In this document: positions 9,796 through 59,244 of the stretch, piece by piece
Position numbering within the stretch: the stretch's first letter is position 1
Layout: every line of letters starts with the position of its first letter
Source: an uncultured Actinomycetes bacterium
GTDB lineage: Bacteria; Actinomycetota; UBA4738; HRBIN12
Direction of reading: 5' to 3'
Length of the DNA: 64,000 nucleotides
Assembly: GCA_963810915.1 (NCBI GenBank)
Contig: CAWEPH010000004.1
Coordinates: 216,027 to 280,026, forward strand
Translations under genes and position numbers: made by a program
Notes under the pieces: generated by a model
What the model was told of the DNA's origin: nothing
The model's database searches: none
What the model saw: only the letters and a program-made list of their open reading frames with translations

Positions 9796-9987
9796 CTCAG
9801 CCTCCTCCCGCGTCCCGGTGCCGCCGCGGACGAGAGCGGCGCCCTCGAGTCCTATCGCGATCGTCGCGCGCCGGCGGCAAGCGAGCCCCGGCCGTCCGTC
9901 CCACTACCGGAGGGTCGGGCGGGTCGTGGCTCGACCGGGTGCGGAGGCGGGCGCCGCGGCGCATCATGGAGGTAGGGGTGAGGTTCT

Positions 9988-11076
9988 GTGCCGGTCGCGG
10001 AGAGCGCGTACCCGACCACCTGGTGGCATCGCCTCGATGACGGGCGGATCCGTTGCGACGTCTGCCCGCGCGGATGCGCGCTGCACGAAGGGCAGCGCGG
10101 GCTCTGCTTCGTGCGCAGGCGCGAAGGGAACGCCGTCGTCCTCACGACCTACGGCCGCTCCTCGGGCTTCTGCGTCGACCCGATCGAGAAGAAGCCGCTC
10201 GACCACTTCCTGCCGGGCACCTCCGTGCTCTCCTTCGGAACGGCCGGGTGCAATCTCGCGTGCCGCTTCTGCCAGAACTGGGACATCTCCAGGTCGCGTG
10301 ACGTCGACACCCTCGCCGATGAGGCATCGCCGGAGGCGATCGCCGAGATGGCAGAGCGGCTGGGCTGCCGTTCGGTCGCCCTCACCTACAACGACCCGGT
10401 GATCTTCCTCGAGTACGCGATCGACGTCGCAGACGCGTGTCGCGCGCGCGGGATCCGCACGGTCGCGGTGACGGCGGGCTACGTGAACGCCGGGCCGGCC
10501 CGCTCGCTCTTCGCGCACATGGACGCCGCCAACGTCGATCTCAAAGGGTTCACGGAGCGCTTCTACCACGACGTCTGCGCCGGGAAGCTCGCTCCGGTGC
10601 TTGCGACGCTCGAGTACCTCGCCCACGAGACCGCCGTCTGGTTCGAGCTCACCACGCTCGTGATCCCGGGCCTGAACGACGGCGATGTCGAGCTGGACCG
10701 GATGACGCGCTGGGTGGTGGCGCATCTCGGTCCGGACGTGCCGATGCACTTCACCGCGTTCCATCCCGACTGGAAGATGCGCGATCGCCCGCCGACGCAG
10801 CCACGGATGCTCGTTAGGGCGCGATCGATCGCGATCGACAACGGTGTCCGTTACGCGTACACGGGCAACGTGGTCGATCCCGAAGGGCAGTCCACACGCT
10901 GTCACGCCTGCGACGCGCTGCTGGTGGGGCGCGACGGCTACCGGATCACGTCGTGGGGTCTCGCCGCGACGGGGCGCTGCCTGGCCTGCGGCACGCCCTG
11001 CGCCGGGGTCTTCGACGCGGGGCCGGGCACCTGGGGGCCGCGGCGGCTACCGCTGCCACGGGTGGGTGCAGGCTGA
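9988..11076 (+). CDS. amrS: AmmeMemoRadiSam system radical SAM enzyme
   Basis: N-terminal extra Cys cluster (CDVCPRGC), the radical SAM motif CNLACRFCQNW and a C-terminal Cys cluster. Directly coupled to a Memo-like gene. Confidence 0.85.
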   Translation: MPVAESAYPTTWWHRLDDGRIRCDVCPRGCALHEGQRGLCFVRRREGNAVVLTTYGRSSGFCVDPIEKKPLDHFLPGTSVLSFGTAGCNLACRFCQNWDISRSRDVDTLADEASPEAIAEMAERLGCRSVALTYNDPVIFLEYAIDVADACRARGIRTVAVTAGYVNAGPARSLFAHMDAANVDLKGFTERFYHDVCAGKLAPVLATLEYLAHETAVWFELTTLVIPGLNDGDVELDRMTRWVVAHLGPDVPMHFTAFHPDWKMRDRPPTQPRMLVRARSIAIDNGVRYAYTGNVVDPEGQSTRCHACDALLVGRDGYRITSWGLAATGRCLACGTPCAGVFDAGPGTWGPRRLPLPRVGAG

Positions 11077-11864
11077 TGGCCGCCATCGTGCGCGCTCCGG
11101 CAGCCGTCGGCACGTTCTATCCGGGCGTGCGCGCGCACCTGGTCGAGGCCGTCGACCTGCTGTTGCAGGGCGTGGAGCCGCGGGAGGGGGCGCGACCGAG
11201 GGGCCTCATCGCCCCGCATGCCGGCTACGTCTACTCGGGGCCGGTGGCCGCCAGCGCCTACGTGGCCCTTCGTCCGTGGGTGGATGAGGTCTCCCGAGTC
11301 CTCGTGCTCGGGCCGGCGCACTTCGCGCCGCTCGTCGGCATGGCCGTTCCCTTCGCTTCCGCCTGGCAGACGCCCCTCGGCGACGTGCCGGTCGATCCCG
11401 AGCTGCACGAGGCCGCCGTGGACGCCGGCTGCATGGTCGACGACGAGACGCACGCGCCGGAGCACGCCGTCGAGGTCCAGCTGCCGTTCTTGCAACGCCT
11501 GGTCGAGGACCGGCTACGGTTCCTCCCGGTGGCGGTGGGCGAGACCGATGCGGAGGAGGTCGCGCGCCTCCTGCAGGTGCTGGAACCGCTCGTGGATCTG
11601 GTCGTCGTCAGCACGGATCTCAGCCACTACGAGGACATCGAAACAGCACGGACGCTCGACCGCCGCACCGCGGACGCCATCCTCGCGCGCGACCCCTCAG
11701 CGCTCCACCGATCGGCCGCGTGCGGCGTCTTCGCGCTCCGTGGCGCCCTCACGTTCGCGCGCGTCGCGTCGCTCGACGTGCGTCTGCTCGACCTCCGGAA
11801 CTCCGGGGACACCGCCGGCGATCCCGAGCGCGTGGTGGGCTACGGCGCGTTCACCCTCACGTGA
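11076..11864 (+). CDS. amrB: AmmeMemoRadiSam system protein B (MEMO1-like)
   Basis: ATG 11076 overlaps the amrS stop (TGATG). APHAGYVYSG motif. DLSHY motif. Confidence 0.85.
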   Translation: MAAIVRAPAAVGTFYPGVRAHLVEAVDLLLQGVEPREGARPRGLIAPHAGYVYSGPVAASAYVALRPWVDEVSRVLVLGPAHFAPLVGMAVPFASAWQTPLGDVPVDPELHEAAVDAGCMVDDETHAPEHAVEVQLPFLQRLVEDRLRFLPVAVGETDAEEVARLLQVLEPLVDLVVVSTDLSHYEDIETARTLDRRTADAILARDPSALHRSAACGVFALRGALTFARVASLDVRLLDLRNSGDTAGDPERVVGYGAFTLT

Positions 11865-17653: not shown

Positions 17654-17732
17654 CTCGCAGGAGCGCCCAGACGCATCGGCGACGTCGGGTCGGCATCGCT
17701 GAGCGTTCCGTCCATTCGTCCCGCGCATCGCG

Positions 17733-18590
17733 GTGAGCTGGGACGATGGAAGCAGACCCATGACGGCAGAGACGAAGATCGAAGACGCCACGCCGCGCGC
17801 CTGGACCGAAGGCGACGCGCCGATGCCCGCCCTGTACCTCGGCCACGGCGCGCCGCCCCTCCTCGACGATCGGTTGTGGACGTCGCAGCTCGCGGCCTGG
17901 GCGAGAGATCTCCCGAAGCCTCGCAGTGTGCTCATCGTCTCCGCGCACTGGGAGTCGGCGCCCCTGACGGTGGGGGCGACGCGCGACGCGGCGCCGCTCA
18001 CCTACGACTTCTACGGCTTCCCCGATCGGTTCTACCGCATGACGTATCCGTCGCCGGGCGCGCCCGACCTCGCGGCGCGCGTCGCGGCGTTGATGCCCGA
18101 CACCGAACGGGTCACCGAGCAGCCCGATCGAGGCCTCGATCACGGCGCGTACGTCCCGCTGATGGTGATGTACCCCAAGGCCGACGTCCCGGTCCTCCAG
18201 ATGTCGATGCCGACGCTCGATCCGGCGCGCCTCTTCGACCTCGGGAGGCGATTGCGTCCCTTGCGCGAGGAGGGCGTGCTCGTGGTCGGATCCGGGTTCC
18301 TCACGCACGGCCTGCCGTTCCTGACGGACTTCCGGCCCGACGCGACGCCGCCCGGGTGGTCGCGGGACTTCGACGACTGGGCTGCCGAGGCACTGGCTCG
18401 CGGCGACGTCGACCAGCTGATGGATTTCCGTCGCGCGGCGCCGGGCATGCCGTACGCACATCCGACGGTCGAGCACTTCGCGCCGCTGTTCGTGACGCTG
18501 GGCGCCGCCGACGATCCGGAGCGCGCGCCCGAGACCGAGATCGCGGGATTCTTCCTGGGTCTCGCGAAGCGATCGTTCCAGGTCGCCTGA
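17733..18590 (+). CDS. LigB-type class III extradiol dioxygenase (4,5-DOPA dioxygenase family)
   Basis: MPALYLGHGAP, SAHW, YDFYGFP and LDHGAYVPL motifs. The start is uncertain between 17733 and 17820. Confidence 0.85.
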   Translation: MSWDDGSRPMTAETKIEDATPRAWTEGDAPMPALYLGHGAPPLLDDRLWTSQLAAWARDLPKPRSVLIVSAHWESAPLTVGATRDAAPLTYDFYGFPDRFYRMTYPSPGAPDLAARVAALMPDTERVTEQPDRGLDHGAYVPLMVMYPKADVPVLQMSMPTLDPARLFDLGRRLRPLREEGVLVVGSGFLTHGLPFLTDFRPDATPPGWSRDFDDWAAEALARGDVDQLMDFRRAAPGMPYAHPTVEHFAPLFVTLGAADDPERAPETEIAGFFLGLAKRSFQVA

Positions 18591-44640: not shown

Positions 44641-45659
44641 TCAGCCCTCGTCAACCACGAGCGCGAGCGCGCCGCGCACCGCGCCGGAGCGCAGCACCGC
44701 GAGCGCCTCGTTCGCCGCATGCAGCGGGAACGCGCGCACGTGTGTGCGAACCGGCACCGTGGGCGCGAACGCGAGGAACTCCACCCCGTCGGCGCGCGTG
44801 AGGTTGGCCACGGAGCGGATCACCCGCTCGTGCCACAGCAGGTCGTACGGGAACGAGGGGATATCGCTCATGTGGATCTCCGCACATACGACGCTGCCGC
44901 CGGGCGCCACGGCGCTCAATGCGGCGGGAACGAGCTCGCCCGCCGCCGCGAACAGGATGGCCGCGTCGAGGGCGGCCGGAGGCCGATCACCCGAGCTTCC
45001 GGCCCAGACGGCGCCCACCTCCAGCGCGAAGGCTTGCGCACTCCGGTCGCCCTCGCGGGTGAACGCGAAGACCTCACGTCCCTGGTGGCGTGCCACCTGG
45101 GTCAGGATGTGCGCCGCCGCACCGAAGCCGTAGATCCCGAGGCGCGCGCCGGCACCGGCGAGCTTCAGCGCGCGCCAGCCGATCAACCCGGCGCACAGGA
45201 GCGGAGCGGCCTGGAGGTCGGGGTAGCCCTCGGGGATCGGGAAGCAGAAGCGGGCGTCGGCGACCGTCTCCCGCGCGTAGCCCCCGTCCACCTGGTAGCC
45301 CGTGAAGCGTCGCTTCGGTGCAGAGGTTCTCACGACCGCTGAGACAGAACGGAGCAGGCTCCGCACGTCCAGCCGAGCCACGGCACGCCCACCCGAGCGC
45401 CGATCTCGAGATCGTCGACGCCGGCGCCCACGGCGTCCACCACGCCGACGATCTGGTGGCCGGGCACGAGCGGGAGGGCGGGATCGGGAAGGTCGCCGTC
45501 GATCACGTGGAGGTCGGTGCGGCAGATCCCGCAGGTCCGCACGCGCAGCCGCACCTGGCCCGGACCGGGCTCGACCGATCCCTGCGCCTCGGGGATCAAC
45601 GGGCCCCCGCGCCCCCGTAGCACCATCGCGTCGACCGTGGCATCCATCTCCGCATCCAC
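44641..45659 (-). pseudogene. Zn-dependent alcohol dehydrogenase with two +1 frameshifts (extra bases at about 45350 and about 45310)
   Basis: Three frames join into a colinear canonical sequence: ..VPWLGWTCGACS | FCLSGRENLCTEA | RFTGYQVDGGYARETV... The N-terminus has CGICRTDLH and GHQIVG. The C-terminus has a Rossmann motif IYGFGAAAH. Confidence 0.75.
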
Positions 45660-45785
45660 GGTAGCGTCGGGCGGACGGATCTCGCTGAGGGTGCGCGCCG
45701 ACGGTGGTGCATCGGGAGTCGCCCACGCACGGCCCCGACGCAGGAACTGACGTACATATGTTCAGGGCCGACCGACCGAGGGGCG

Positions 45786-52949: not shown

Positions 52950-53876
52950 ATGACGTACGCCGATCAACTCGATCGTCGAGAGTTCCTGAAGAAGGCCGCC
53001 GTCGCCGGTACCGCGACCGCCGGCCTCGGTTGGCTCACCTACGCCGACCTGCAGCACGAGGCGGTCGCGAAGGGCCGTCACTGCAAGTGGGGCGCCCTCT
53101 CTCTGAAGGGGTCGAGCCAGGAGAGCGCCATGCGGGCTCTGGAGCACCAGGTCGGCAGGAAGTTCGACACCACGCACTACCGCATGCCGTGGGACTCCGA
53201 TCTCGTGAACAAGTTCACGCGGTGGAGCGCGCACACGGGCCATACGCCGATCCTGTCCTGGTTCGCTCGGACGAAAGGCGGGCCCGTCAGCTGGCGAGGG
53301 ATCGCGCAGGGCCAGCACGACGCCTGGATCACGAAGCAGGCGCGCAGCCTCAGGGCCTCGGGCTGGAACGGCTACTTCTGCTTCCACAAGGAGCCCGAGG
53401 ACGAGGGCAACTCCACCGATTGGAAGGCCGCGTACAACCGCGTCCACAAGATCTTCCACAACGTCGGCGTGAGGAAGTTCCGTTGGGTCGTGGCGTTGAT
53501 GGCGTCGACCTATCAGGCGGGCGAAGCCGGGCAGTGGCTCCCTCGCAACTACGACCTGCTGGGGGTGGATGGCTACAACCGCTACCACTGTCGCAACACC
53601 CCGTGGCGGCCGTTCAACGAGATCTTCTCCCCGGCGCGCGCGTTCGCCCGGTCCCACAAGCGCTCCCTCTACGTCGTGGAAGCGGGGTGCGTCGAAGGGG
53701 AGCCCGGCCGCAAGGCGGACTGGTTCAGGGGAGCCAGGGCCACGATCAAGACGTGGCCGGAGATCGTGGGCTTCTCCTACAACAACGAGGACACCGACTG
53801 CACCTACTACGTGGATTCCTCGTCGTCCGCGCTGTCGTCGTTCCGCGCGATGGGGCGCGACGCCTACTTCCGGTGA
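52950..53876 (+). CDS. Tat-signal GH26-like glycoside hydrolase
   Basis: ACGGAGGA lies upstream. RREFLKKAAVAGTATAG is a Tat signal. The pattern WGA..GRKFD..PILSW..GQHDAWI..FCFHKEPE..WVVA..YDLLGVDGYN is GH26-like. Confidence 0.7.
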   Translation: MTYADQLDRREFLKKAAVAGTATAGLGWLTYADLQHEAVAKGRHCKWGALSLKGSSQESAMRALEHQVGRKFDTTHYRMPWDSDLVNKFTRWSAHTGHTPILSWFARTKGGPVSWRGIAQGQHDAWITKQARSLRASGWNGYFCFHKEPEDEGNSTDWKAAYNRVHKIFHNVGVRKFRWVVALMASTYQAGEAGQWLPRNYDLLGVDGYNRYHCRNTPWRPFNEIFSPARAFARSHKRSLYVVEAGCVEGEPGRKADWFRGARATIKTWPEIVGFSYNNEDTDCTYYVDSSSSALSSFRAMGRDAYFR

Positions 53877-53889
53877 GCGTCCGGGCCGT

Positions 53890-53914
53890 GGTGGGGGCGT
53901 GCGTCGCCCCCACC
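53890..53914 (+). terminator. Hairpin after the GH26-like gene
   Basis: GGTGGGGGCG-tgcgt-CGCCCCCACC (10 bp stem). No T tract. Confidence 0.4.
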
Positions 53915-53922
53915 CGCCCGCG

Positions 53923-53951
53923 TTGACGCCGGCACCCGCCTCCCCTAGGCT
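53923..53951 (+). promoter_or_regulatory. Putative sigma70-type promoter of the 54.0-57.9 kb operon
   Basis: TTGACG - 17 nt - TAGGCT, about 70 nt upstream of ATG 54023. Confidence 0.3.
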
Positions 53952-54022
53952 CCGGCGGCATCGAGCCAGGACGCATCCTCGGGAACCAACGTTGACCCCT
54001 CGAGCCACGCACCCCCCAGGCG

Positions 54023-54688
54023 ATGAGGCCTGAGATCCTCGCCCCGCTGTTCTTCCTCGCCGCCGGGCTGCTCGTGGTCGCCGGCTCGGGCAAGCTCGTG
54101 CGCCCGGAGTCGACCGCGCAGGCCCTCTACGGCGCGGGGTTGCCCGGATCGGCCTGGACGGCCCGCGGCCTCGCCGCCGCGGAGGTGCTGGTGGGTTTCG
54201 CGGCGCTCGCCCGGCCGTCATGGCTCACGGCCCTCGGTGTCGCTAGCGCCTACCTCGCGTTCGCCGGGTTCGTCGCCTACCTGAAGGTGGCCCGCCCGGC
54301 ATCGACCTCGTGCGGATGCGCGGGCGGGCACGATGTGCCGCCGAGCTGGGTCCACGTGTTCCTGAACCTGCTCGCTGTCACCGTCGCCGTGGCGGCTGCG
54401 GTCGTGGGGCTACCGAACGCCTGGGCGTTCGCGTCGTCCCTCGGTTGGGCGGCCGCCCCGGTCATCGTGGGCCTCGCCGTCGCCGGATGGCTCCTCGCCG
54501 TGGTCGTGGCGGAGGTGCCCGCGGCGCTGTCGGTTTGGACGGCGCCCTCGCATCACGAGCGGGAGGTCTTCGACCCGGACCGCCACCGACGTGCCGACGT
54601 CGCGCTCTCCACGGCCGGTGTCGGACCCGGCCACGCGAGCCTGTGGCCGCAGACGGACGTCCCGCACCCGGGGGACCTGCCGGCATGA
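54023..54688 (+). CDS. MauE/DoxX-family redox-associated membrane protein
   Basis: N-terminus FFLAAGLLVVAGSGKLVRP, a central SCGCAG motif and 4-5 helices, as in the MauE family. Confidence 0.8.
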   Translation: MRPEILAPLFFLAAGLLVVAGSGKLVRPESTAQALYGAGLPGSAWTARGLAAAEVLVGFAALARPSWLTALGVASAYLAFAGFVAYLKVARPASTSCGCAGGHDVPPSWVHVFLNLLAVTVAVAAAVVGLPNAWAFASSLGWAAAPVIVGLAVAGWLLAVVVAEVPAALSVWTAPSHHEREVFDPDRHRRADVALSTAGVGPGHASLWPQTDVPHPGDLPA

Positions 54689-55272
54689 GCGTTACCGAAC
54701 GGGCGATGCGCGTGGCGACGAGGATCGTGGGGCGCCGCGATGCCGACGATGGTTCGCGTCGCGCCGCCATCTCGGCCGCCGCCTTGGCCGTGGCGCCCGT
54801 GCGCTACGCGACACGACCGGTCGAGGCCGAGTCGCTCCTGCGCGCCTCCTGTAGCAGCTGTCCACCCGGTTCGCGCTGCTGCGGCGGCTACACCGCGTTC
54901 TGCTGCACGCTGCCCGGCGGCTCCAACTTCGGCTGTCCGGAGAACACGTTCGTGGGCGGCTGGTGGCAGTGCAGCTACGGGGGGAGCGGCCTCTGCGGCA
55001 CCACGAACGTCCGCTACTACCTCGACTGCAGCATCGACCCGGGGAAGGCGTGTCCCGGCGGGTGCCACTGCGGCGGTGACGACTGCTCCAACTTCAAGAC
55101 GTGCTGCGTGGTCTTCCGCTACGGGCAGTGCAACACGCAGATCGCGGCGGTCACGCCGATCCAATGTCGGCTGGTCACGTGCGTGTTGCCCTGCCAGATC
55201 GAGTGCCTGAACTGCCACTGTTCCTCGGCCGTCGACCAGTACACCTGCACCCACGAGGCGGGATGCCTGTGA
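54685..55272 (+). CDS. Tat-signal, extremely Cys-rich secreted protein (25 Cys), MauA-like in context
   Basis: ATGA overlap with the mauE-like gene. Long leader with SRRAAISAAALAVAP. The mature part has CSSCPPG, CCGG, FCC, GGWWQC, and more. Confidence 0.7.
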   Translation: MSVTERAMRVATRIVGRRDADDGSRRAAISAAALAVAPVRYATRPVEAESLLRASCSSCPPGSRCCGGYTAFCCTLPGGSNFGCPENTFVGGWWQCSYGGSGLCGTTNVRYYLDCSIDPGKACPGGCHCGGDDCSNFKTCCVVFRYGQCNTQIAAVTPIQCRLVTCVLPCQIECLNCHCSSAVDQYTCTHEAGCL

Positions 55273-55949
55273 ACGGGCTCACCGTGCTCGTGACGGTCGA
55301 GACGGTGCTGCTCGTCCTGCTGAGCGTGGTCGTGGTCGGGCTCCTGCGGAGCCACGCCGAGATCCTTCGTCGCCTGCCCGAGGAGGAGGCGCCGGCGGCC
55401 CGCTCCGGACCCCGCTCCGTCGCGCTCGAGGATCGACGCGCCGACGCGCGGCCGTCCGCGGATGCACCGCGCGTCCCCTCGCACCTTCCGGGGCCTCGAG
55501 CGAGGGTTACGCCCGCCTACGACCTGACCGGGCGAAGCCTCGACGGCGCCGCGCTCGTGCTCCCCGTGGCCACGGCCGGCACGCCGACGCTCGTCGCGTT
55601 CCTGTCCAGCGGGTGCCTCACGTGCCGGACGTTCTGGCAAGGCCTGCGCGACGGCGCCCACCTGCCGATGCCGGACGACGCCCGGGTCGTCGCCGTCACG
55701 AAGGACCGGGAGATGGAGAGCCCGTCCCGCCTGCTCGATCTCGCACCTCCGGACGTGCCCGTCGTGATGTCGTCCGACGCGTGGGGGAGCTACGGCGTCA
55801 GCGTGTCCCCCTACTTCGTGATGGTGGGCGCCGACGGCGAGGTCCGAGGCGAGGGGGCCGCCAGCTCGTGGGAGCAGGTGCGATCCCTCCTCGCCGATGC
55901 CGTCGCCGACGAGGCGCTCGCGCGCGCGGAGCAGGAAGGCGCGCGATGA
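55263..55949 (+). CDS. Membrane-anchored thioredoxin-fold protein (TlpA/MauD-like), CxxC
   Basis: N-terminal TM (LTVLVTVETVLLVLLSVVVVGLL). LVAFLSSGCLTCRTFW active site. The start is ATG 55263, or GTG 55269 in a GTGA overlap. Confidence 0.75.
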   Translation: MPVNGLTVLVTVETVLLVLLSVVVVGLLRSHAEILRRLPEEEAPAARSGPRSVALEDRRADARPSADAPRVPSHLPGPRARVTPAYDLTGRSLDGAALVLPVATAGTPTLVAFLSSGCLTCRTFWQGLRDGAHLPMPDDARVVAVTKDREMESPSRLLDLAPPDVPVVMSSDAWGSYGVSVSPYFVMVGADGEVRGEGAASSWEQVRSLLADAVADEALARAEQEGAR

Positions 55950-56029
55950 GCACGTCGCAGGGCGTCTTCCTGGGACTCGCGCTGGGTCTCGCAGTGGCAG
56001 CAGCCGTCCGATCGACCTGGTCGCCCTGA
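55946..56029 (+). CDS. 27-codon hydrophobic micro-ORF, in frame with the next gene across a TGA
   Basis: ATGA overlap with the previous gene. MSTSQGVFLGLALGLAVAAAVRSTWSP followed by TGA. The next ATG (56039) is 3 codons later in the same frame. Confidence 0.35.
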   Translation: MSTSQGVFLGLALGLAVAAAVRSTWSP

Positions 56030-56038
56030 GGGACGTCG

Positions 56039-56632
56039 ATGCTGGGAAGCATCACCCCGCTCGGGCAGCGGGCACGCGGATCCCGGTTCTGGCCGACGGC
56101 CACGGCCTACATGGTGGCGTCCGCGTTCGCCGGAGCGGCGGTCGGCGTCGCGCTCGGGTCTCTCGGCGCGCCGCTGTTCGGATCGCTCTCGTGGACGGCG
56201 CGCGTCGCGATCCTGGGCTCCGGAGCGCTCGTGGGGGTCGCGTTCGATCTCGGCATCGCGGGGCTGCGACTGCCGACCGTCCACCGCCAGGTGAACGAGG
56301 AGTGGATGCAGCGCTACCGAGGGCCCGTGTTCGGTGCGGGGTTCGGGTTCCAGCTGGGCGCCGGTGTGGTGACGATCGTCACCACCTCGGCGATCTACGC
56401 CACGCTCCTGGCCGAGACCCTCGCGGGGAGCGTGGTCCCGGCCGCCGTCATCGGGCTCGTGTTCGGCACGGCGCGCGCACTCCCGATCCTCGTCGTCTCG
56501 CGGGTGCGCGAGCCCCGCCAGCTCGGACGCGTGCAGGGTGCGTTGCAGCGCTGGGGCCGTCCGGTGCGCAACGGCGTCCTGTGGGCGCAGTCGGGCCTCG
56601 CCGTGGCGGCGGCGGTGGTGGTGCTGCGATGA
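56039..56632 (+). CDS. Polytopic membrane protein (unknown family, no Cys)
   Basis: 197 aa with 5-6 helices and a GFGFQLGAGVVT motif. It may be the C-terminal part of a 228-residue protein that starts at 55946. Confidence 0.65.
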   Translation: MLGSITPLGQRARGSRFWPTATAYMVASAFAGAAVGVALGSLGAPLFGSLSWTARVAILGSGALVGVAFDLGIAGLRLPTVHRQVNEEWMQRYRGPVFGAGFGFQLGAGVVTIVTTSAIYATLLAETLAGSVVPAAVIGLVFGTARALPILVVSRVREPRQLGRVQGALQRWGRPVRNGVLWAQSGLAVAAAVVVLR

Positions 56633-57087
56633 CGATCCTGGCCGACCAGGGCCTCTCCGTGGACGTGCCACCGGGCTGGGAGGGACGGATCTTCACCCCG
56701 GAGCTGCCGCCGCCGGCCCAGAACCACCCGGTGCTCCATCTCGCCGACGTGCGCCTCCCGCTGGAACGCAGCTCCTACGTCGAATCCACGACGACCCTGC
56801 ACCGCGCCCGCGGCGGCCTCGTGTGCTCCCTCGTCAGCTTCGGCCCGGATCTCGCGGACGTCGGGCTCTACGCCCCGCAGGGCGTGCCCCGGATCCATCT
56901 TCATGACCTCGACCCGCGCGCGTTGCAGGTTCCCGCGCACGACCAGGCGGGCGTCCAACGGTTCTTCTCGGTCGCCGGCGTCGCGTTCAGCCTGTACGCG
57001 GTGGCCTCGGTCGATCTCCACACCGCGGCGCGCCTGCGTGCCATGAACCGTGCACTCGCGTCGTTGCAGGTGGAGGGCGCCTCGTGA
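56629..57087 (+). CDS. Hypothetical soluble protein
   Basis: ATGA overlap with the previous gene. 152 aa with no signal peptide. Confidence 0.6.
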   Translation: MTILADQGLSVDVPPGWEGRIFTPELPPPAQNHPVLHLADVRLPLERSSYVESTTTLHRARGGLVCSLVSFGPDLADVGLYAPQGVPRIHLHDLDPRALQVPAHDQAGVQRFFSVAGVAFSLYAVASVDLHTAARLRAMNRALASLQVEGAS

Positions 57088-57665
57088 CCTGGCTCCCGTG
57101 GGTCCTCGTCCTCGCGCTCGCCGTCGCCGTCGGCTTGCTGCTGCTCGCGCTCCGCGGCGCGGACCAGACGATCGCCGAGCTCCGTGCAGACGCCGGCGTC
57201 GATGACGTCGCCCATCTCTCATCGGGGATCCCGGCGGGGAGCCGGGCGCCGTGGTTCGATGCGGGGGCGGCCGAGGGCGGGCGGTTCGACGCGAAGGAGC
57301 TGGCGGGGCTCCGGCACCTGATCCTGTTCGCCGATCCCGGGTGCCTGTCGTGTGCCGAGCTCGTGCCCCAGGTGCTGGCCGCCGCGGCGCAGCGCGTCCT
57401 GCCCAACGTCGTGGTGGTGAGCCAGGGCCCCCCGGGAGCGCAACCGGAGGCCTGGATCGGGGCCGAGCGCTCGCGACTGGTGATCGAGGAGGGGACCACC
57501 GTGTCCGATGCCTTCGCCGTCGACGTGACGCCGACGGCGTTCGTCATCGACGAGGGTGGGTGGGTCGTGGCCGGCGGCCCGGTCCGCTCGGCCGGGGAGG
57601 TCATCGACCTCGCGTCCGATGCCGAAGGCGTGCGGATCGTCGGGGAGGCCGTCGGCGATGGATGA
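57084..57665 (+). CDS. Membrane-anchored thioredoxin-fold protein (second copy), CxxC
   Basis: GTGA overlap. TM WLPWVLVLALAVAVGLLLLAL. ILFADPGCLSCAEL active site. Confidence 0.75.
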   Translation: MTWLPWVLVLALAVAVGLLLLALRGADQTIAELRADAGVDDVAHLSSGIPAGSRAPWFDAGAAEGGRFDAKELAGLRHLILFADPGCLSCAELVPQVLAAAAQRVLPNVVVVSQGPPGAQPEAWIGAERSRLVIEEGTTVSDAFAVDVTPTAFVIDEGGWVVAGGPVRSAGEVIDLASDAEGVRIVGEAVGDG

Positions 57666-57942
57666 GCGCGACGGACCCCAGCATGTGCTCACCCGCCGAT
57701 CGTTCGTGACGAGAGCCTCCCTCGCCGCGTTCGGCGCCTACGCCGTCATCGCGGGGTCGGATGCCTCCCGGGCGGTCGCGCGCCCGGTTCCGGACCCTTG
57801 CAAGGTGGGGTGCGAACCCATCAGCCGCACGGGGTGTGCGTGCGGCGGGAACCTCTATCGATGTGAAGGATGCGGTCGCTCGTATCACGCCTGCATCGAG
57901 GGTCGCGCCTATCGCGGCTTCTGTCTGCGGCGGAAGTGCTGA
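57658..57942 (+). CDS. Small Tat-signal Cys-rich secreted protein (9 Cys in about 50 aa)
   Basis: 8 nt overlap (ATGGATGA). TRRSFVTRASLAAFGAYAV is a Tat signal. The mature part is PCKVGCEPISRTGCACGGNLYRCEGCGRSYHACIEGRAYRGFCLRRKC. Confidence 0.65.
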   Translation: MDERDGPQHVLTRRSFVTRASLAAFGAYAVIAGSDASRAVARPVPDPCKVGCEPISRTGCACGGNLYRCEGCGRSYHACIEGRAYRGFCLRRKC

Positions 57943-57948
57943 TCTACC

Positions 57949-59244
57949 TCAGCCCTGGCCTGAGCGCGAGCGCAGACCGTAGTCGAGGAAGGACGGGTCG
58001 CGGGCGTTCCAGATCACGACCCGCGTCGTCGCGTCCGTCATGGCGAGCGACGGCGACTCGTTCACCGGGGGCCCGGCGTTCGCCGGGTTCAGCCGGACGG
58101 GAGAGGTCCACGACCCGCCGTGATCGGAGGAGATCGTGGCGAACACGTCGATCCGCGCGCCGCGTCGGGTGGAAGCGCAAGGATCGGTGAGGGCGCTCAC
58201 CCGACACGCTCCGAAGACGAGGGTGAGGTCCCCGTTGCCGGAGGGCTGCACCGCGGGGCCGTAGGCGCCCGCGTAGCTCACCCCGCCGAGGCTCGTCGGC
58301 CACGGGCCGCTCAGCACCTCGCGTTCGCCCCCGAACGACGACCCGTCGAACGTGCGCACGGCGAGCCCCGCGTCGGTCGAGTAGGCCACCACGACGTCGT
58401 TGGAGATGCCGTCGGTGGCGCCACGGGCATTCGCGTAGTGGAAGCCGTCGTTGGGGCTGGGCGTGGTGAGGGTGTCGGGGCTGATGCCCGCGAGGTCCCC
58501 GCCTCCCGTGCTCGATCCCTTCGCCACCTGGGTGCCGGCGTCGTCCGCGAACCACGTCACCACCACGTTCGTGCCGCTCGCGCCGACGACCGGATAGCCC
58601 GCGAACCCCTCCGCTCCGGTCGGGCGCGCGGTGGTCGTGCCGATCGTGGCGATGCTCCAGTGGGCCCCCGCGTCCGTGCTCGAGGCGAAGCGGATCGCAC
58701 CCGTGTCCGCCGCGGTCCAGACGGCATACGCGGTCGATCCGGTCATCGCGATGGTCGGGTAGTCGACGCGGGACCGCTTCGGCGAGAGGCGGATCGGCGC
58801 GGACCATCGGCGGCCCGCATCGATGCTGCGGCGCACGTAGAAGACCCTCGGCGCCCGCGGACGGTACCGCCGATACGACGTCTGCGTGACCCACCCGGCC
58901 AGGACGCGCGCGCCGGAGGCGGCGACGGTGGCCCGCTCGGCCTGGGCGCGACGTTGCGAGATGCGCACGGGCTTGGCCCATCCGCCCGCGTGATGGCGCT
59001 GGGCGAAGACGCCCATGTACGGACCCTTGTCTCGCGCGCAGCGTCCTTTGGGGGGAGGGCAATCGCTCGACCAGACCATCACGAGGCCTCTCGACGTGCC
59101 GACCAGGGCGTTGCCGGGGTTCCATATCGAGGGAGGCCCCACCGTGCGCGTCGACCCCCAGGTGACGGCCGCCCGTGCGGGCGCCGCGGCCGACATGAGG
59201 AGCGCGAGGGCGACGGGCACGACGAGGCGCAGGCGGGCGATCAT
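57949..59244 (-). CDS. Secreted BNR/Asp-box (sialidase-like) beta-propeller protein
   Basis: Signal peptide. Asp-boxes SIDAGRRWS, STDAGAHWS and SSDHGGSWT. Confidence 0.8.
   Translation of the reverse strand: MIARLRLVVPVALALLMSAAAPARAAVTWGSTRTVGPPSIWNPGNALVGTSRGLVMVWSSDCPPPKGRCARDKGPYMGVFAQRHHAGGWAKPVRISQRRAQAERATVAASGARVLAGWVTQTSYRRYRPRAPRVFYVRRSIDAGRRWSAPIRLSPKRSRVDYPTIAMTGSTAYAVWTAADTGAIRFASSTDAGAHWSIATIGTTTARPTGAEGFAGYPVVGASGTNVVVTWFADDAGTQVAKGSSTGGGDLAGISPDTLTTPSPNDGFHYANARGATDGISNDVVVAYSTDAGLAVRTFDGSSFGGEREVLSGPWPTSLGGVSYAGAYGPAVQPSGNGDLTLVFGACRVSALTDPCASTRRGARIDVFATISSDHGGSWTSPVRLNPANAGPPVNESPSLAMTDATTRVVIWNARDPSFLDYGLRSRSGQG

Follow-up and report, generated by a model that had tools for sequence, protein, structure and literature searches.

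The DNA analyzed here is a 64-kb stretch of contig CAWEPH010000004.1 (GenBank assembly GCA_963810915.1, positions 216,027 to 280,026) from an uncultured Actinomycetes bacterium, referred to below as the window. This report concerns an operon of seven cistrons (g1 to g7) at positions 54023-57942 of its plus strand, and in particular the fourth gene, g4, which is interrupted by a conserved in-frame UGA codon. Inspection of the sequence revealed that all junctions overlap, and the overlaps claimed by a first-pass annotation made from the letters alone are in place: ATGA at 54685-54688, an ATG at 55263 with a TGA at 55270-55272, ATGA at 55946-55949 and at 56629-56632, GTGA at 57084-57087, and ATGGATGA at 57658-57665. 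The GC content at third codon positions is 0.79-0.91 for 7 of 7 open reading frames (ORFs), which is typical of coding sequence in a genome with 71% GC. In order, the operon encodes a MauE-family membrane protein (g1), an exported protein very rich in cysteine (g2), a membrane-anchored thioredoxin-fold protein (g3), the UGA-containing membrane protein (g4), a protein without signal peptide (g5), a second anchored thioredoxin (g6) and a second small Cys-rich protein (g7). A convergent gene (g8) for a secreted protein follows on the minus strand.

To establish which of these genes belong together, we compared the window products by tblastn with 82 related loci, and all synteny counts given here derive from this comparison. 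Matches were found for g2 in 82 loci, for g3 and g4 in 80 each, for g5 in 73 and for the more divergent g1 in 61. The second thioredoxin and the second Cys-rich protein with a twin-arginine translocation (Tat) signal, both reported by the first-pass annotation, are present as g6 and g7; they are specific to a clade nearer to the window (39 and 34 of 82 loci), as is g8 (29 loci). The five-gene core g1-g5 is syntenic in at least 80 species-level actinobacterial metagenome-assembled genomes (MAGs), and this cassette arrangement is far beyond chance. The unit is made up of the five-gene core and a clade-specific trio of second thioredoxin, second small Cys-rich protein and propeller. Earlier doubt as to whether the large Cys-rich ORF has conserved homologues and synteny with MauE is settled by 297 related proteins, by relatives in 265 species genomes (one genome per species scanned) and by the synteny counts above. 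One MAG (MFD09126.bin.1.74) contains two complete TGA-form cassettes g1-g8 (L009 and L011, on CAVXYE010000012 and CAVXYE010000015), so that either the module is duplicated in one genome or the bin mixes two strains.

The gene g4 (55946..56632, plus strand) comprises 228 codons, none of them for Cys, and codon 28 is TGA (56027..56029, plus strand). With selenocysteine (Sec, U) at this position, the invariant motif reads R-S-T-W-S-P-U-G-x-S-M-L, which makes g4 a candidate selenoprotein gene. The previous description of the product as a polytopic membrane protein stands, with six transmembrane (TM) helices once the N-terminal helix is restored, but the TGA had been overlooked and the ORF is not uninterrupted. 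This codon was first spotted as conserved in two distant loci by an exact-protein look-up, and then in all 81 g4 loci. Between W-S-P and G-x-S-M-L the codon is TGA in 81 of 81 loci, and never TAA, TAG or a sense codon. On either side, in the same frame, a TM helix and RSTWSP upstream and GxSMLxSITPLG downstream are conserved in the 81 loci. The three codons that separate the UGA from the next Met keep an invariant Gly and an invariant Ser, without an indel in any locus. We rejected a pseudogene reading of g4 in view of its conservation in 81 species-level loci. ARAGORN also placed a "tRNA-???" with an anticodon of only two bases inside the g4 coding region of one locus (L019 8537-8615), almost certainly in error.

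Public gene calls of g4 start at the Met three codons after the TGA, giving a 197-aa product in the window, and as a result nearly all database relatives measure 194-200 aa. More than 2,000 database entries are related to g4; among the matches listed, 120 of 120 are truncated calls measuring some 195 aa, as are the 119 Sec-form entries from another g4 search. With a Solirubrobacterales g4 as the seed, all matches were metagenome or MAG proteins, and no cultured strain was reached.

Homologues that are contiguous through this site reveal what the UGA replaces. In 23 of 23 contiguous full-length representatives (219-294 aa) Cys occupies exactly the UGA column, within the motif R-S-T-W-S-P-C-G-x-S-M-L-S-x-I-T-P-L. 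Scanning metagenomes with a profile of this Cys form yielded 506 confirmed loci, and the 76 unique loci that were analyzed all use TGC or TGT. Altogether, more than 95 contiguous relatives were examined and all carry Cys at the UGA site bar one TGG variant. Hence g4 combines an in-frame UGA that is conserved across orthologues, coding conservation on both sides of it, and Cys homologues aligned to the UGA, all of them features of bacterial selenoproteins.

The RNA downstream of the UGA also distinguishes the two forms. For this comparison we used 70 unique Sec-form sequences and 76 unique Cys-form loci, and numbered nucleotides from the U of the UGA as 0. The window RNA can form a hairpin HP1 (+11 to +26; 56038..56053, plus strand) with 6 bp, a 4-nt loop GGGA and a folding energy of -8.5 kcal/mol, followed by a hairpin HP2 (+29 to +45; 56056..56072, plus strand) with 6 bp, a 5-nt loop CGGGC and -9.6 kcal/mol. 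All six pairs of HP1 are formed in 67 of 70 Sec forms compared with 3 of 76 Cys forms, and all pairs of HP2 in 69 of 70 compared with 1 of 76; the family consensus of the HP2 loop is C-G-G-N-S. The mean folding energy of the segment from +3 to +47 is -22.3 kcal/mol for Sec forms and -14.1 kcal/mol for Cys forms. The pair 29-45 of HP2 covaries (CG 46, UG 18, UA 7, other 1) to an extent reached by 0 of 500 shuffles, and sliding the partners against each other reduced pairing from 99.5% to 39-58%. Because covariation occurs at pair 29-45 only, we preferred the two separate hairpins to the structure that RNAalifold initially proposed and to the single-sequence minimum free energy (MFE) structure, a long hairpin that pairs the GA of the UGA with CUC.

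Codon usage in this segment is equally restricted, with synonymous sites frozen from +9 to +44 in Sec forms only. Thus, Ser +3 is TCG in 70 of 70 Sec forms (Cys forms: TCG 48, TCC 27), Ser +7 is AGC in 70 of 70 (variable in Cys forms), Pro +10 is CCG in 70 of 70 (53 of 76), Leu +11 is CTC in 69 of 70 (variable) and Arg +14 is CGG in 70 of 70 (19 of 76). At codons -2, -1, +1 and +12, these Sec forms show free variation. It is the frozen bases that build HP1 and HP2. In bacteria, insertion of Sec is directed by a hairpin, the bacterial selenocysteine insertion sequence (bSECIS). The published bSECIS model specifies a loop of 3-9 nt with a G within its first two nucleotides, a stem of 4-16 bp, a spacing of 16-37 nt and an MFE of -7.5 kcal/mol or lower (PMC13188914). 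HP2 falls within all four limits with its 6-bp stem, CGGGC loop, 32-nt spacing and -9.6 kcal/mol; HP1 (-8.5 kcal/mol) does so in all respects except for its spacing of 14 nt.

A different reading of the same data is that the UGA is a real stop and that g4 is a split gene for a 27-aa TM peptide and a 197-aa protein with five TM helices. After terminating, the ribosome would re-initiate at an AUG located 9 nt downstream, a coupling that the hairpins would serve, and selenium would play no role. This arrangement agrees with the public gene calls, all of which start at the post-UGA Met, and since the AUG lies inside HP1, a terminating ribosome could unmask it. On the other hand, HP2 is located well downstream of the AUG, where it has no role in re-initiation, and it fits the bSECIS model. 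Three residues here, the Gly following the UGA, the Met of this AUG and the Ser that precedes it, show no variation in the contiguous Cys forms either, so that what looks like a ribosome binding site and start (GAGG-N7-ATG) is explained by coding constraint. Furthermore, no stop other than TGA occurs, 81 loci keep a spacing of exactly 9 nt without an indel, and the split would take the only redox residue of the family out of the protein body. We therefore consider a split gene unlikely.

Several observations count against translation of the UGA as Sec and have to be set beside this evidence. First, the UGAGG sequence does provide a Shine-Dalgarno-like GAGG core 7 nt upstream of the AUG, where a ribosome could mechanistically re-initiate after termination. 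Second, machinery for Sec incorporation was seen neither in the 64-kb window (no tRNA-Sec by ARAGORN; no selA, selB or selD by Pfam among 46 ORFs) nor in 1.6 Mb of loci around the cassettes (no tRNA-Sec by ARAGORN in 165 loci; no SelA, SelD or SelB by motif scans), which would also agree with a split gene. Third, the metagenome protein P0155 (224 aa, encoded on a 1,040-bp contig) has TGG (Trp) at the UGA site. P0155 is the only contiguous Sec-clade-like homologue that we found, and an exhaustive phmmer search seeded with it gave 1,585 relatives, among them the 23 contiguous representatives described above; its TGG might reflect an error of sequencing, an allele that has lost its function or adaptation to a host that lacks Sec. 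A scan of other TGA-interrupted coding frames in Sec-form loci, which was insensitive, did not bring up a convincing second selenoprotein. SelD, SelA and SelB are recorded for cultured Solirubrobacter soli, Solirubrobacter sp. URHD0082, Patulibacter americanus, Conexibacter woesei Iso977N and Rubrobacter xylanophilus (PMC5029168, Peng et al. 2016 supplement), which means that the Sec trait exists in this part of the Actinomycetota. On balance, the codon, homologue and hairpin comparisons make it highly probable that g4 is a true selenoprotein in which the UGA is read as Sec.

An inventory of 119 prokaryotic selenoprotein families from 2026 lists nothing equivalent to g4, and the known selenoproteins it does list include TsoB (rhodanese/DsbD fusion-like), an SO_0444 Cu/Zn efflux protein, a putative mercuric transport protein, YeeE/YedE and a UGC-containing TlpA-family protein (PMC13188914 and its Table 1). 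Like these membrane or redox selenoproteins, g4 has a (candidate) Sec in place of a functional Cys, pairs of Sec and Cys homologues, a SECIS hairpin after the UGA, and a truncated product in every database record examined. In contrast to them, it features a motif of its own (WSPUG, with a single Sec), has no NCBIfam match and is embedded in a MauE module. The hosts also differ from those of known selenoprotein systems, being high-GC soil Actinomycetota (Solirubrobacterales, Gaiellales, unnamed classes) which we take, from their lineage, to be aerobic. A full-text literature search for selenoproteins linked with MauE or DoxX found nothing relevant. We propose g4 as a candidate for a new selenoprotein family, outside both the 2026 catalogue of 119 families and NCBIfam.

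As to the family to which g4 may belong, the closest parallels are CcdA/DsbD (PF02683) and DsbD_2 (PF13386). The first TM helix of CcdA/DsbD bears an S-P-C...P motif, which the W-S-P-[C/U]-G...T-P motif of g4 resembles. Other shared features are the approximately six TM helices, the position of the S-P-C-type motif (WSP[C/U]G....TP) at the end of TM1 and the genomic pairing with extracytoplasmic thioredoxin-fold proteins. Some g4 relatives score on PF13386, and about one-fifth of the g4 database homologues carry a precomputed match to this family. On the other side of the comparison, g4 found no NCBIfam model and no PDB profile match, CcdA included, and the residue at the motif is UGA-encoded in the window's lineage. 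The sequence comparison suggests that g4 is a distant relative of DsbD_2, with a weak formal link.

The constant companion of g4 is g1 (54023..54688, plus strand), a 221-aa membrane protein with the C-terminal tail motif AGVGPGHASLWP. Its earlier designation as MauE-like is borne out by PF07291, which matches residues 10-126 on a profile of 128 positions with 50.6 bits (cut-off 27); the homologue in L084 scores 46.3 bits. The protein contains only two Cys, C97-G-C99, in the sequence SCGCAG. This sole Cys pair is located in the loop after TM3 and corresponds to the CXC active site, with AG after the CGC in place of the usual FG. Recent work has defined the CXC motif experimentally as the active site of MauE and characterized MauE as a DsbB-like disulfide-forming protein that is independent of methylamine dehydrogenase: it complements E. 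coli dsbB through the CXC motif, its homologues, predicted quinone binders, have a distribution independent of that of MauA, and about 8% of them are fused to thioredoxin-fold domains, with which pairing is frequent (bioRxiv 10.64898/2026.03.05.709764). In L001 a gene for a MeaB/ArgK-type G3E GTPase (PF03308; 8701-9519) overlaps the MauE start, and this family recurs upstream of the cassette in 25 Solirubrobacterales-type loci; this hints that the cassette of the five-gene clade is co-transcribed with a metallochaperone-like GTPase.

Both anchored CxxC thioredoxins of the first-pass annotation are also confirmed, each with exactly two Cys. The N-terminally membrane-anchored protein g3 (55263..55949, plus strand) carries GCLTC, and C118 and C121 are invariant in an alignment of six homologues; g6 (57084..57665, plus strand) carries GCLSC. 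The CxxC motifs and weak matches to Thioredoxin_2, AhpC-TSA and Redoxin identify both as thioredoxin-fold proteins. The best NCBIfam match of both is MauD (TIGR02661), a weak one with 23.4 bits for g3 and 21.3 bits for g6 compared with the equivalog cut-off of 188.6. Thus, g1, g3 and g6 contain one redox motif each and no further Cys.

A tail motif, AAGI-PGHPSLYP, ends the anchored thioredoxin g3 in most loci (L001 around 11330-11400, L002 around 11200-11240, L083, L084). In the window's clade the AGI-PGHPSLYP motif is found at the C-terminus of MauE instead (window 54608-54650, STAGVGPGHASLWPQ). It seems from these sequences that a linear motif has migrated between two components of the module, and it may be a docking site. 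Its occurrence on either the g3 tail or the tail of a five-TM MauE fits a location of both tails outside the cytoplasm.

The probable client of these redox proteins is g2 (54685..55272, plus strand), a presumably exported protein of 195 aa with a putative Tat-type RR leader. The Cys counts reported previously are correct, namely 25 for g2 and 9 for g7. About 18 of the 25 Cys are conserved across the family, together with invariant GGWW, RYYLDC and FRYGQC motifs; the count is odd (25 Cys) in the window clade, and 18 Cys are conserved in the five-gene clade. We found no Pfam or NCBIfam match for g2 at E <= 1, and no sequence or profile relative among all PDB chains (phmmer and a 20-sequence profile). 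The 297 database relatives are unnamed or "hypothetical" apart from P0056, a Tat-signal-domain protein by its NCBI name, and none has a Pfam domain. The best 80 of the 265 genomes are all Actinomycetota MAGs (Solirubrobacterales, Gaiellales, Thermoleophilia, "Actinomycetes"). AlphaFold2 modeled the mature domain from a 116-sequence alignment with a mean predicted local distance difference test score (pLDDT) of 79.4 and a predicted TM-score (pTM) of 0.74; full-length g2 with a 20-sequence alignment gave a pLDDT of 39. The mature-domain model had no Foldseek match in the PDB at E <= 0.001, a method that is weak on small, irregular, disulfide-rich folds. Judged by these searches, g2 represents a new family without a Pfam, NCBIfam or PDB relative.

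The second Cys-rich protein, g7 (57658..57942, plus strand), has 94 aa; it carries a putative Tat signal (TRRSFV), and its mature domain of about 47 aa contains 9 Cys. An alignment of 35 homologues shows conservation of the Cys pattern PCR-VRCEPISRTGCxCGGNLYRCxGC..FHAC....FCLRRxC. The Tat leaders of g7 (TRRSFV) and of the g2 family (consensus SRRxxL followed by an A-rich h-region) were assigned by eye; the TAT_signal hidden Markov model (HMM) matches neither g2 nor g7, and does match the 308-aa protein encoded upstream of the operon.

The remaining core protein, g5 (56629..57087, plus strand), has 152 aa, no signal peptide and no known family. Neither g5 nor its homologues have a Pfam match, and g5 has no NCBIfam or PDB match either. 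The first-pass annotation had listed it as a soluble unknown protein; the lack of a known family is upheld, but its conserved core role was overlooked, as it occurs in 73 of 82 loci and belongs to the core in both Sec and Cys lineages. The latter point comes from 38 Cys-form metagenome loci of at least 6 kb, which contain the Cys-rich protein in 26, a thioredoxin in 25, a g5-like protein in 26, MauE in 23 and a repeat domain in 21 cases. Since the same families surround the Cys forms of g4, the five families form a unit, in two gene orders, across Sec and Cys lineages.

Two Cys-form cassettes (L083 and L084) illustrate the repeat domain. Their gene order, permuted relative to that of the window, is thioredoxin, g5-like protein, MauE, a protein of 456-462 aa and the membrane protein. 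The 456-462-aa protein consists of a g2-family domain with Tat leader (GGWW, PRYY[IM]DC, FRYGQC), a Pro-rich linker and five or six propeller-like repeats of about 40 aa each with the pattern GYW[LV]....G.....GDA.F.G. The fusion protein has no Pfam match, and its repeat domain has no PDB profile match. In the fusion gene of L083 (6615-7985) about 60 mid-gene codons are R/P/H-rich and without family similarity before the similarity resumes; the L084 orthologue is intact, and the gap looks like a compensated frameshift or an assembly error. In the window, g8 (57949..59244, minus strand) encodes a secreted protein that is weakly BNR-like, with a BNR_2 score of 23.2 bits, below the Pfam threshold of 31.4, and without a PDB sequence or profile relative. 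This gene adjoins the cassette in 29 loci, and in L033, L034 and L036 it is found on the other side, upstream of MauE. The sequences thus suggest that the Cys-rich domain is repeatedly tied to a propeller-type domain, either by fusion or, in the window's clade, by proximity to g8. Any link to the BNR protein had been called speculative, which understates the adjacency in 29 loci despite relocation and the fused repeat domain in Cys forms; the partnership itself is what we infer from these arrangements, with g8 as a probable partner or substrate of the Cys-rich proteins.

This association bears on the question of whether g2 is, as first supposed, MauA-like. A small Cys-rich protein with Tat leader next to MauE and a MauD-like protein mirrors the mauEDA genes, and the recurrent propeller is comparable to the beta-propeller heavy chain on which a light chain sits. 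One could therefore imagine g2 as a quinoprotein light chain with a Trp-derived cofactor and g8 or the fused repeat domain as the heavy chain of a non-canonical amine or other dehydrogenase, matured by the MauE and MauD homologues. PF02975 light chains and the gamma subunit of quinohemoprotein amine dehydrogenase (QHNDH) indeed share with g2 the small size, export, richness in disulfides or cross-links and a long Tat-type leader, and they too have a beta-propeller partner and dedicated redox accessory genes. However, no similarity in sequence, profile or fold to these proteins was detected: g2 does not match PF02975 at E <= 1, has no PDB sequence or profile match to the small subunits of methylamine dehydrogenase (MADH), aromatic amine dehydrogenase (AADH) or QHNDH, and its confident model remained without a Foldseek match in the PDB. 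MauA contains tryptophan tryptophylquinone (TTQ), a Trp-derived quinone cofactor, the two Trp of which are about 50 residues apart. The only two Trp of g2, W93 and W94, are both invariant in the family, but they are adjacent, unlike the TTQ pair. The odd number of Cys in the window clade leaves room for a cross-link. The Cys after WW is not conserved in the Cys-form fusions.

The genomic surroundings agree with this assessment. No cofactor-forming enzyme of the MauG, QhpD/QhpG or LodB type is encoded in the cassette or window, and there is no cytochrome-c-peroxidase-type gene in the 64 kb. As stated by the first-pass annotation, MauB, MauG and amicyanin are absent from the window (none among the 46 ORFs scanned with Pfam), and none of the three adjoins the cassette in L001 or L002. 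A single Copper-bind gene was observed in L001 only, 6 kb from the cassette. Finally, the five-gene form of Solirubrobacterales has no adjacent propeller. We conclude that a quinoprotein light chain is a highly unlikely identity for g2.

We also considered that the locus could be a metal-handling system. In such a system g4, as a member of the LysE/DsbD/TauE/NicO superfamily, would move a soft metal or chalcogen with Sec or Cys as ligand, g2 and g7 would be exported metal-binding proteins (metallothionein-like or cluster-binding) and the thioredoxins would keep the ligands reduced. Tat export usually implies folding or cofactor loading in the cytoplasm, the g7 spacing CxC...CxxC...HxC would suit a metal site, and various sources annotate g4 relatives as TauE/SafE, CcdA or MFS. 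Membrane selenoproteins with Sec as metal ligand are known, such as the mercuric transport protein and SO_0444 Cu/Zn efflux (PMC13188914). Yet MauE, the constant member of the module, has demonstrated disulfide-forming activity (bioRxiv 10.64898/2026.03.05.709764), and the even number of 18 conserved Cys in the five-gene clade fits nine disulfides. Moreover, no HMM match to any metal-binding family was found, and genes for a metallochaperone, a P-type ATPase or a metal regulator do not adjoin the cassette consistently. For these reasons a metal-handling function appears improbable to us.

The explanation that we prefer, and regard as probable, is that the locus is an instance of a widespread, uncharacterized actinobacterial thiol-redox module that matures exported hyper-Cys proteins outside the cytoplasmic membrane. 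In this module, the C97-G-C99 loop of MauE would act as a DsbB-like, quinone-linked oxidase and re-oxidize the tethered thioredoxin g3, a MauD/DsbA-like carrier, which would introduce about nine or more disulfides into g2 after export. Translated through the UGA, g4 could engage a thiol of thioredoxin, MauE or client in a transient selenenylsulfide by way of its lone Sec (or Cys). Since a client with 18-25 Cys needs proofreading, the single Sec/Cys of g4 is a candidate for supplying the reducing, isomerizing or resolving half-reaction. Lacking a signal peptide, g5 may assist in the cytoplasm, for instance by chaperoning the leader or the substrate. In the window's clade the second thioredoxin g6 might serve the second small Cys-rich Tat protein g7, and the mature Cys-rich proteins would work with a beta-propeller-type partner, which may be g8 here and the fused repeat domain in Cys-form lineages.

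Other observations sit less comfortably with this explanation. In an alignment, the thioredoxin anchors carry several positive charges behind the TM helix but none ahead of it, which by the positive-inside rule would place the thioredoxin domains in the cytoplasm and contradict a DsbA-like role unless the rule fails; the shared tail motif described above runs counter to a cytoplasmic thioredoxin. The g4 family has a single invariant Cys column in place of the two Cys (in TM1 and TM4) of CcdA/DsbD, so that the two-Cys relay of these proteins cannot apply with only one redox residue. In our own scan PF13386 was matched by just 3 of 25 g4 relatives (best E = 7e-5), and the window g4 has no Pfam match. 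Lastly, the cysteines of g2 may be metal-bound instead of disulfide-bonded. With these points taken into account, an oxidative-folding role of the module as a whole seems to us slightly better supported than not. The suggestion of the first-pass annotation, an uncharacterized system for oxidative folding, nevertheless is the best-supported frame and fits the description of MauE as a DsbB-like protein (bioRxiv 10.64898/2026.03.05.709764).

The system that we propose is a MauE-centered thiol-redox pathway with a Sec/Cys oxidoreductase pair, and as such is not categorically new. It shares with the MauE/MauD part of mau clusters the PF07291 protein whose loop contains CXC (CGC), a CxxC thioredoxin-fold partner associated with the membrane and a small Cys-rich client protein with Tat leader, and MauE without MauA, MauB or MauG has already been described as common (bioRxiv 10.64898/2026.03.05.709764). 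It differs from mau clusters in that the client is a new family and not MauA, that MauB, MauG and amicyanin are missing, and that two extra parts are constant, the 6-TM protein with a single Sec or Cys and the 150-aa protein. In addition, AG and not FG follows the CGC, and the thioredoxins remain far below the MauD equivalog cut-off.

At its 5' side the operon is preceded by a hairpin (53872..53935, plus strand) that had been noticed before and proved real, with -43.8 kcal/mol and z = -3.2 relative to shuffles. Because this hairpin directly abuts the stop of the upstream Tat-signal gene (52950-53876), it is probably the terminator of the preceding gene and marks the 5' limit of the operon. The proposed TTGACG-N17-TAGGCT promoter, in contrast, did not survive a consensus scan of 53700-58200, which detected no promoter-like site, no sigma-70 consensus promoter and no T-run terminator. 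An Rfam search over 53800-58100 returned no family, only snoRNA-level chance matches. The product of the upstream gene (plus strand) has 308 aa, bears a clear Tat signal (TIGR01409) and matches no further family; it is kept only in the closest relative, L003, and is probably outside the module. A tRNA-Leu(UAA) is conserved 1.5-2 kb beyond the BNR-like gene in many loci of the window's wider clade (L012 12204-12288; L020 11532-11615) and was not seen in the window itself. Elsewhere in the window, the only match of a 143-aa ORF (45333-45761, minus strand) is to the GroES-like domain at the N-terminus of zinc alcohol dehydrogenases. This ORF, which overlaps the beginning of a large FtsX-type permease gene's stop-to-stop frame (from 45621), may have been truncated or frameshifted. 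Overlapping radical-SAM and Memo-like genes (9982-11864, plus strand; an AmmeMemoRadiSam-type pair) and a LigB-family dioxygenase gene (17703-18590) are unrelated to the operon.

These results provide the MauE disulfide pathway with a candidate natural client family and two unexpected constant partners, and offer a testable system of five components compared with the two of the DsbA/DsbB analogy. The client family, with 18-25 Cys in about 140 exported residues, has a predicted fold without a solved relative. A more daring and unlikely possibility is that the MauE oxidase and the membrane selenoprotein, with its single Sec at the membrane surface, together build a new cross-linked or cofactor-bearing extracellular redox protein, in which the Cys-rich "light" domain with its invariant adjacent Trp pair docks on or is fused to a beta-propeller and selenium is used for the maturation step itself; if true, the Actinomycetota would have their own equivalent of the quinoprotein dehydrogenases, produced by another chemistry. 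Having just one Sec or Cys, a redox membrane protein cannot work like CcdA/DsbD, and natural Sec and Cys versions of g4 exist for comparison. If g4 is indeed translated through its UGA, abundant uncultured soil Actinomycetota would contain a polytopic membrane selenoprotein, which bears on the use of selenium in soils.

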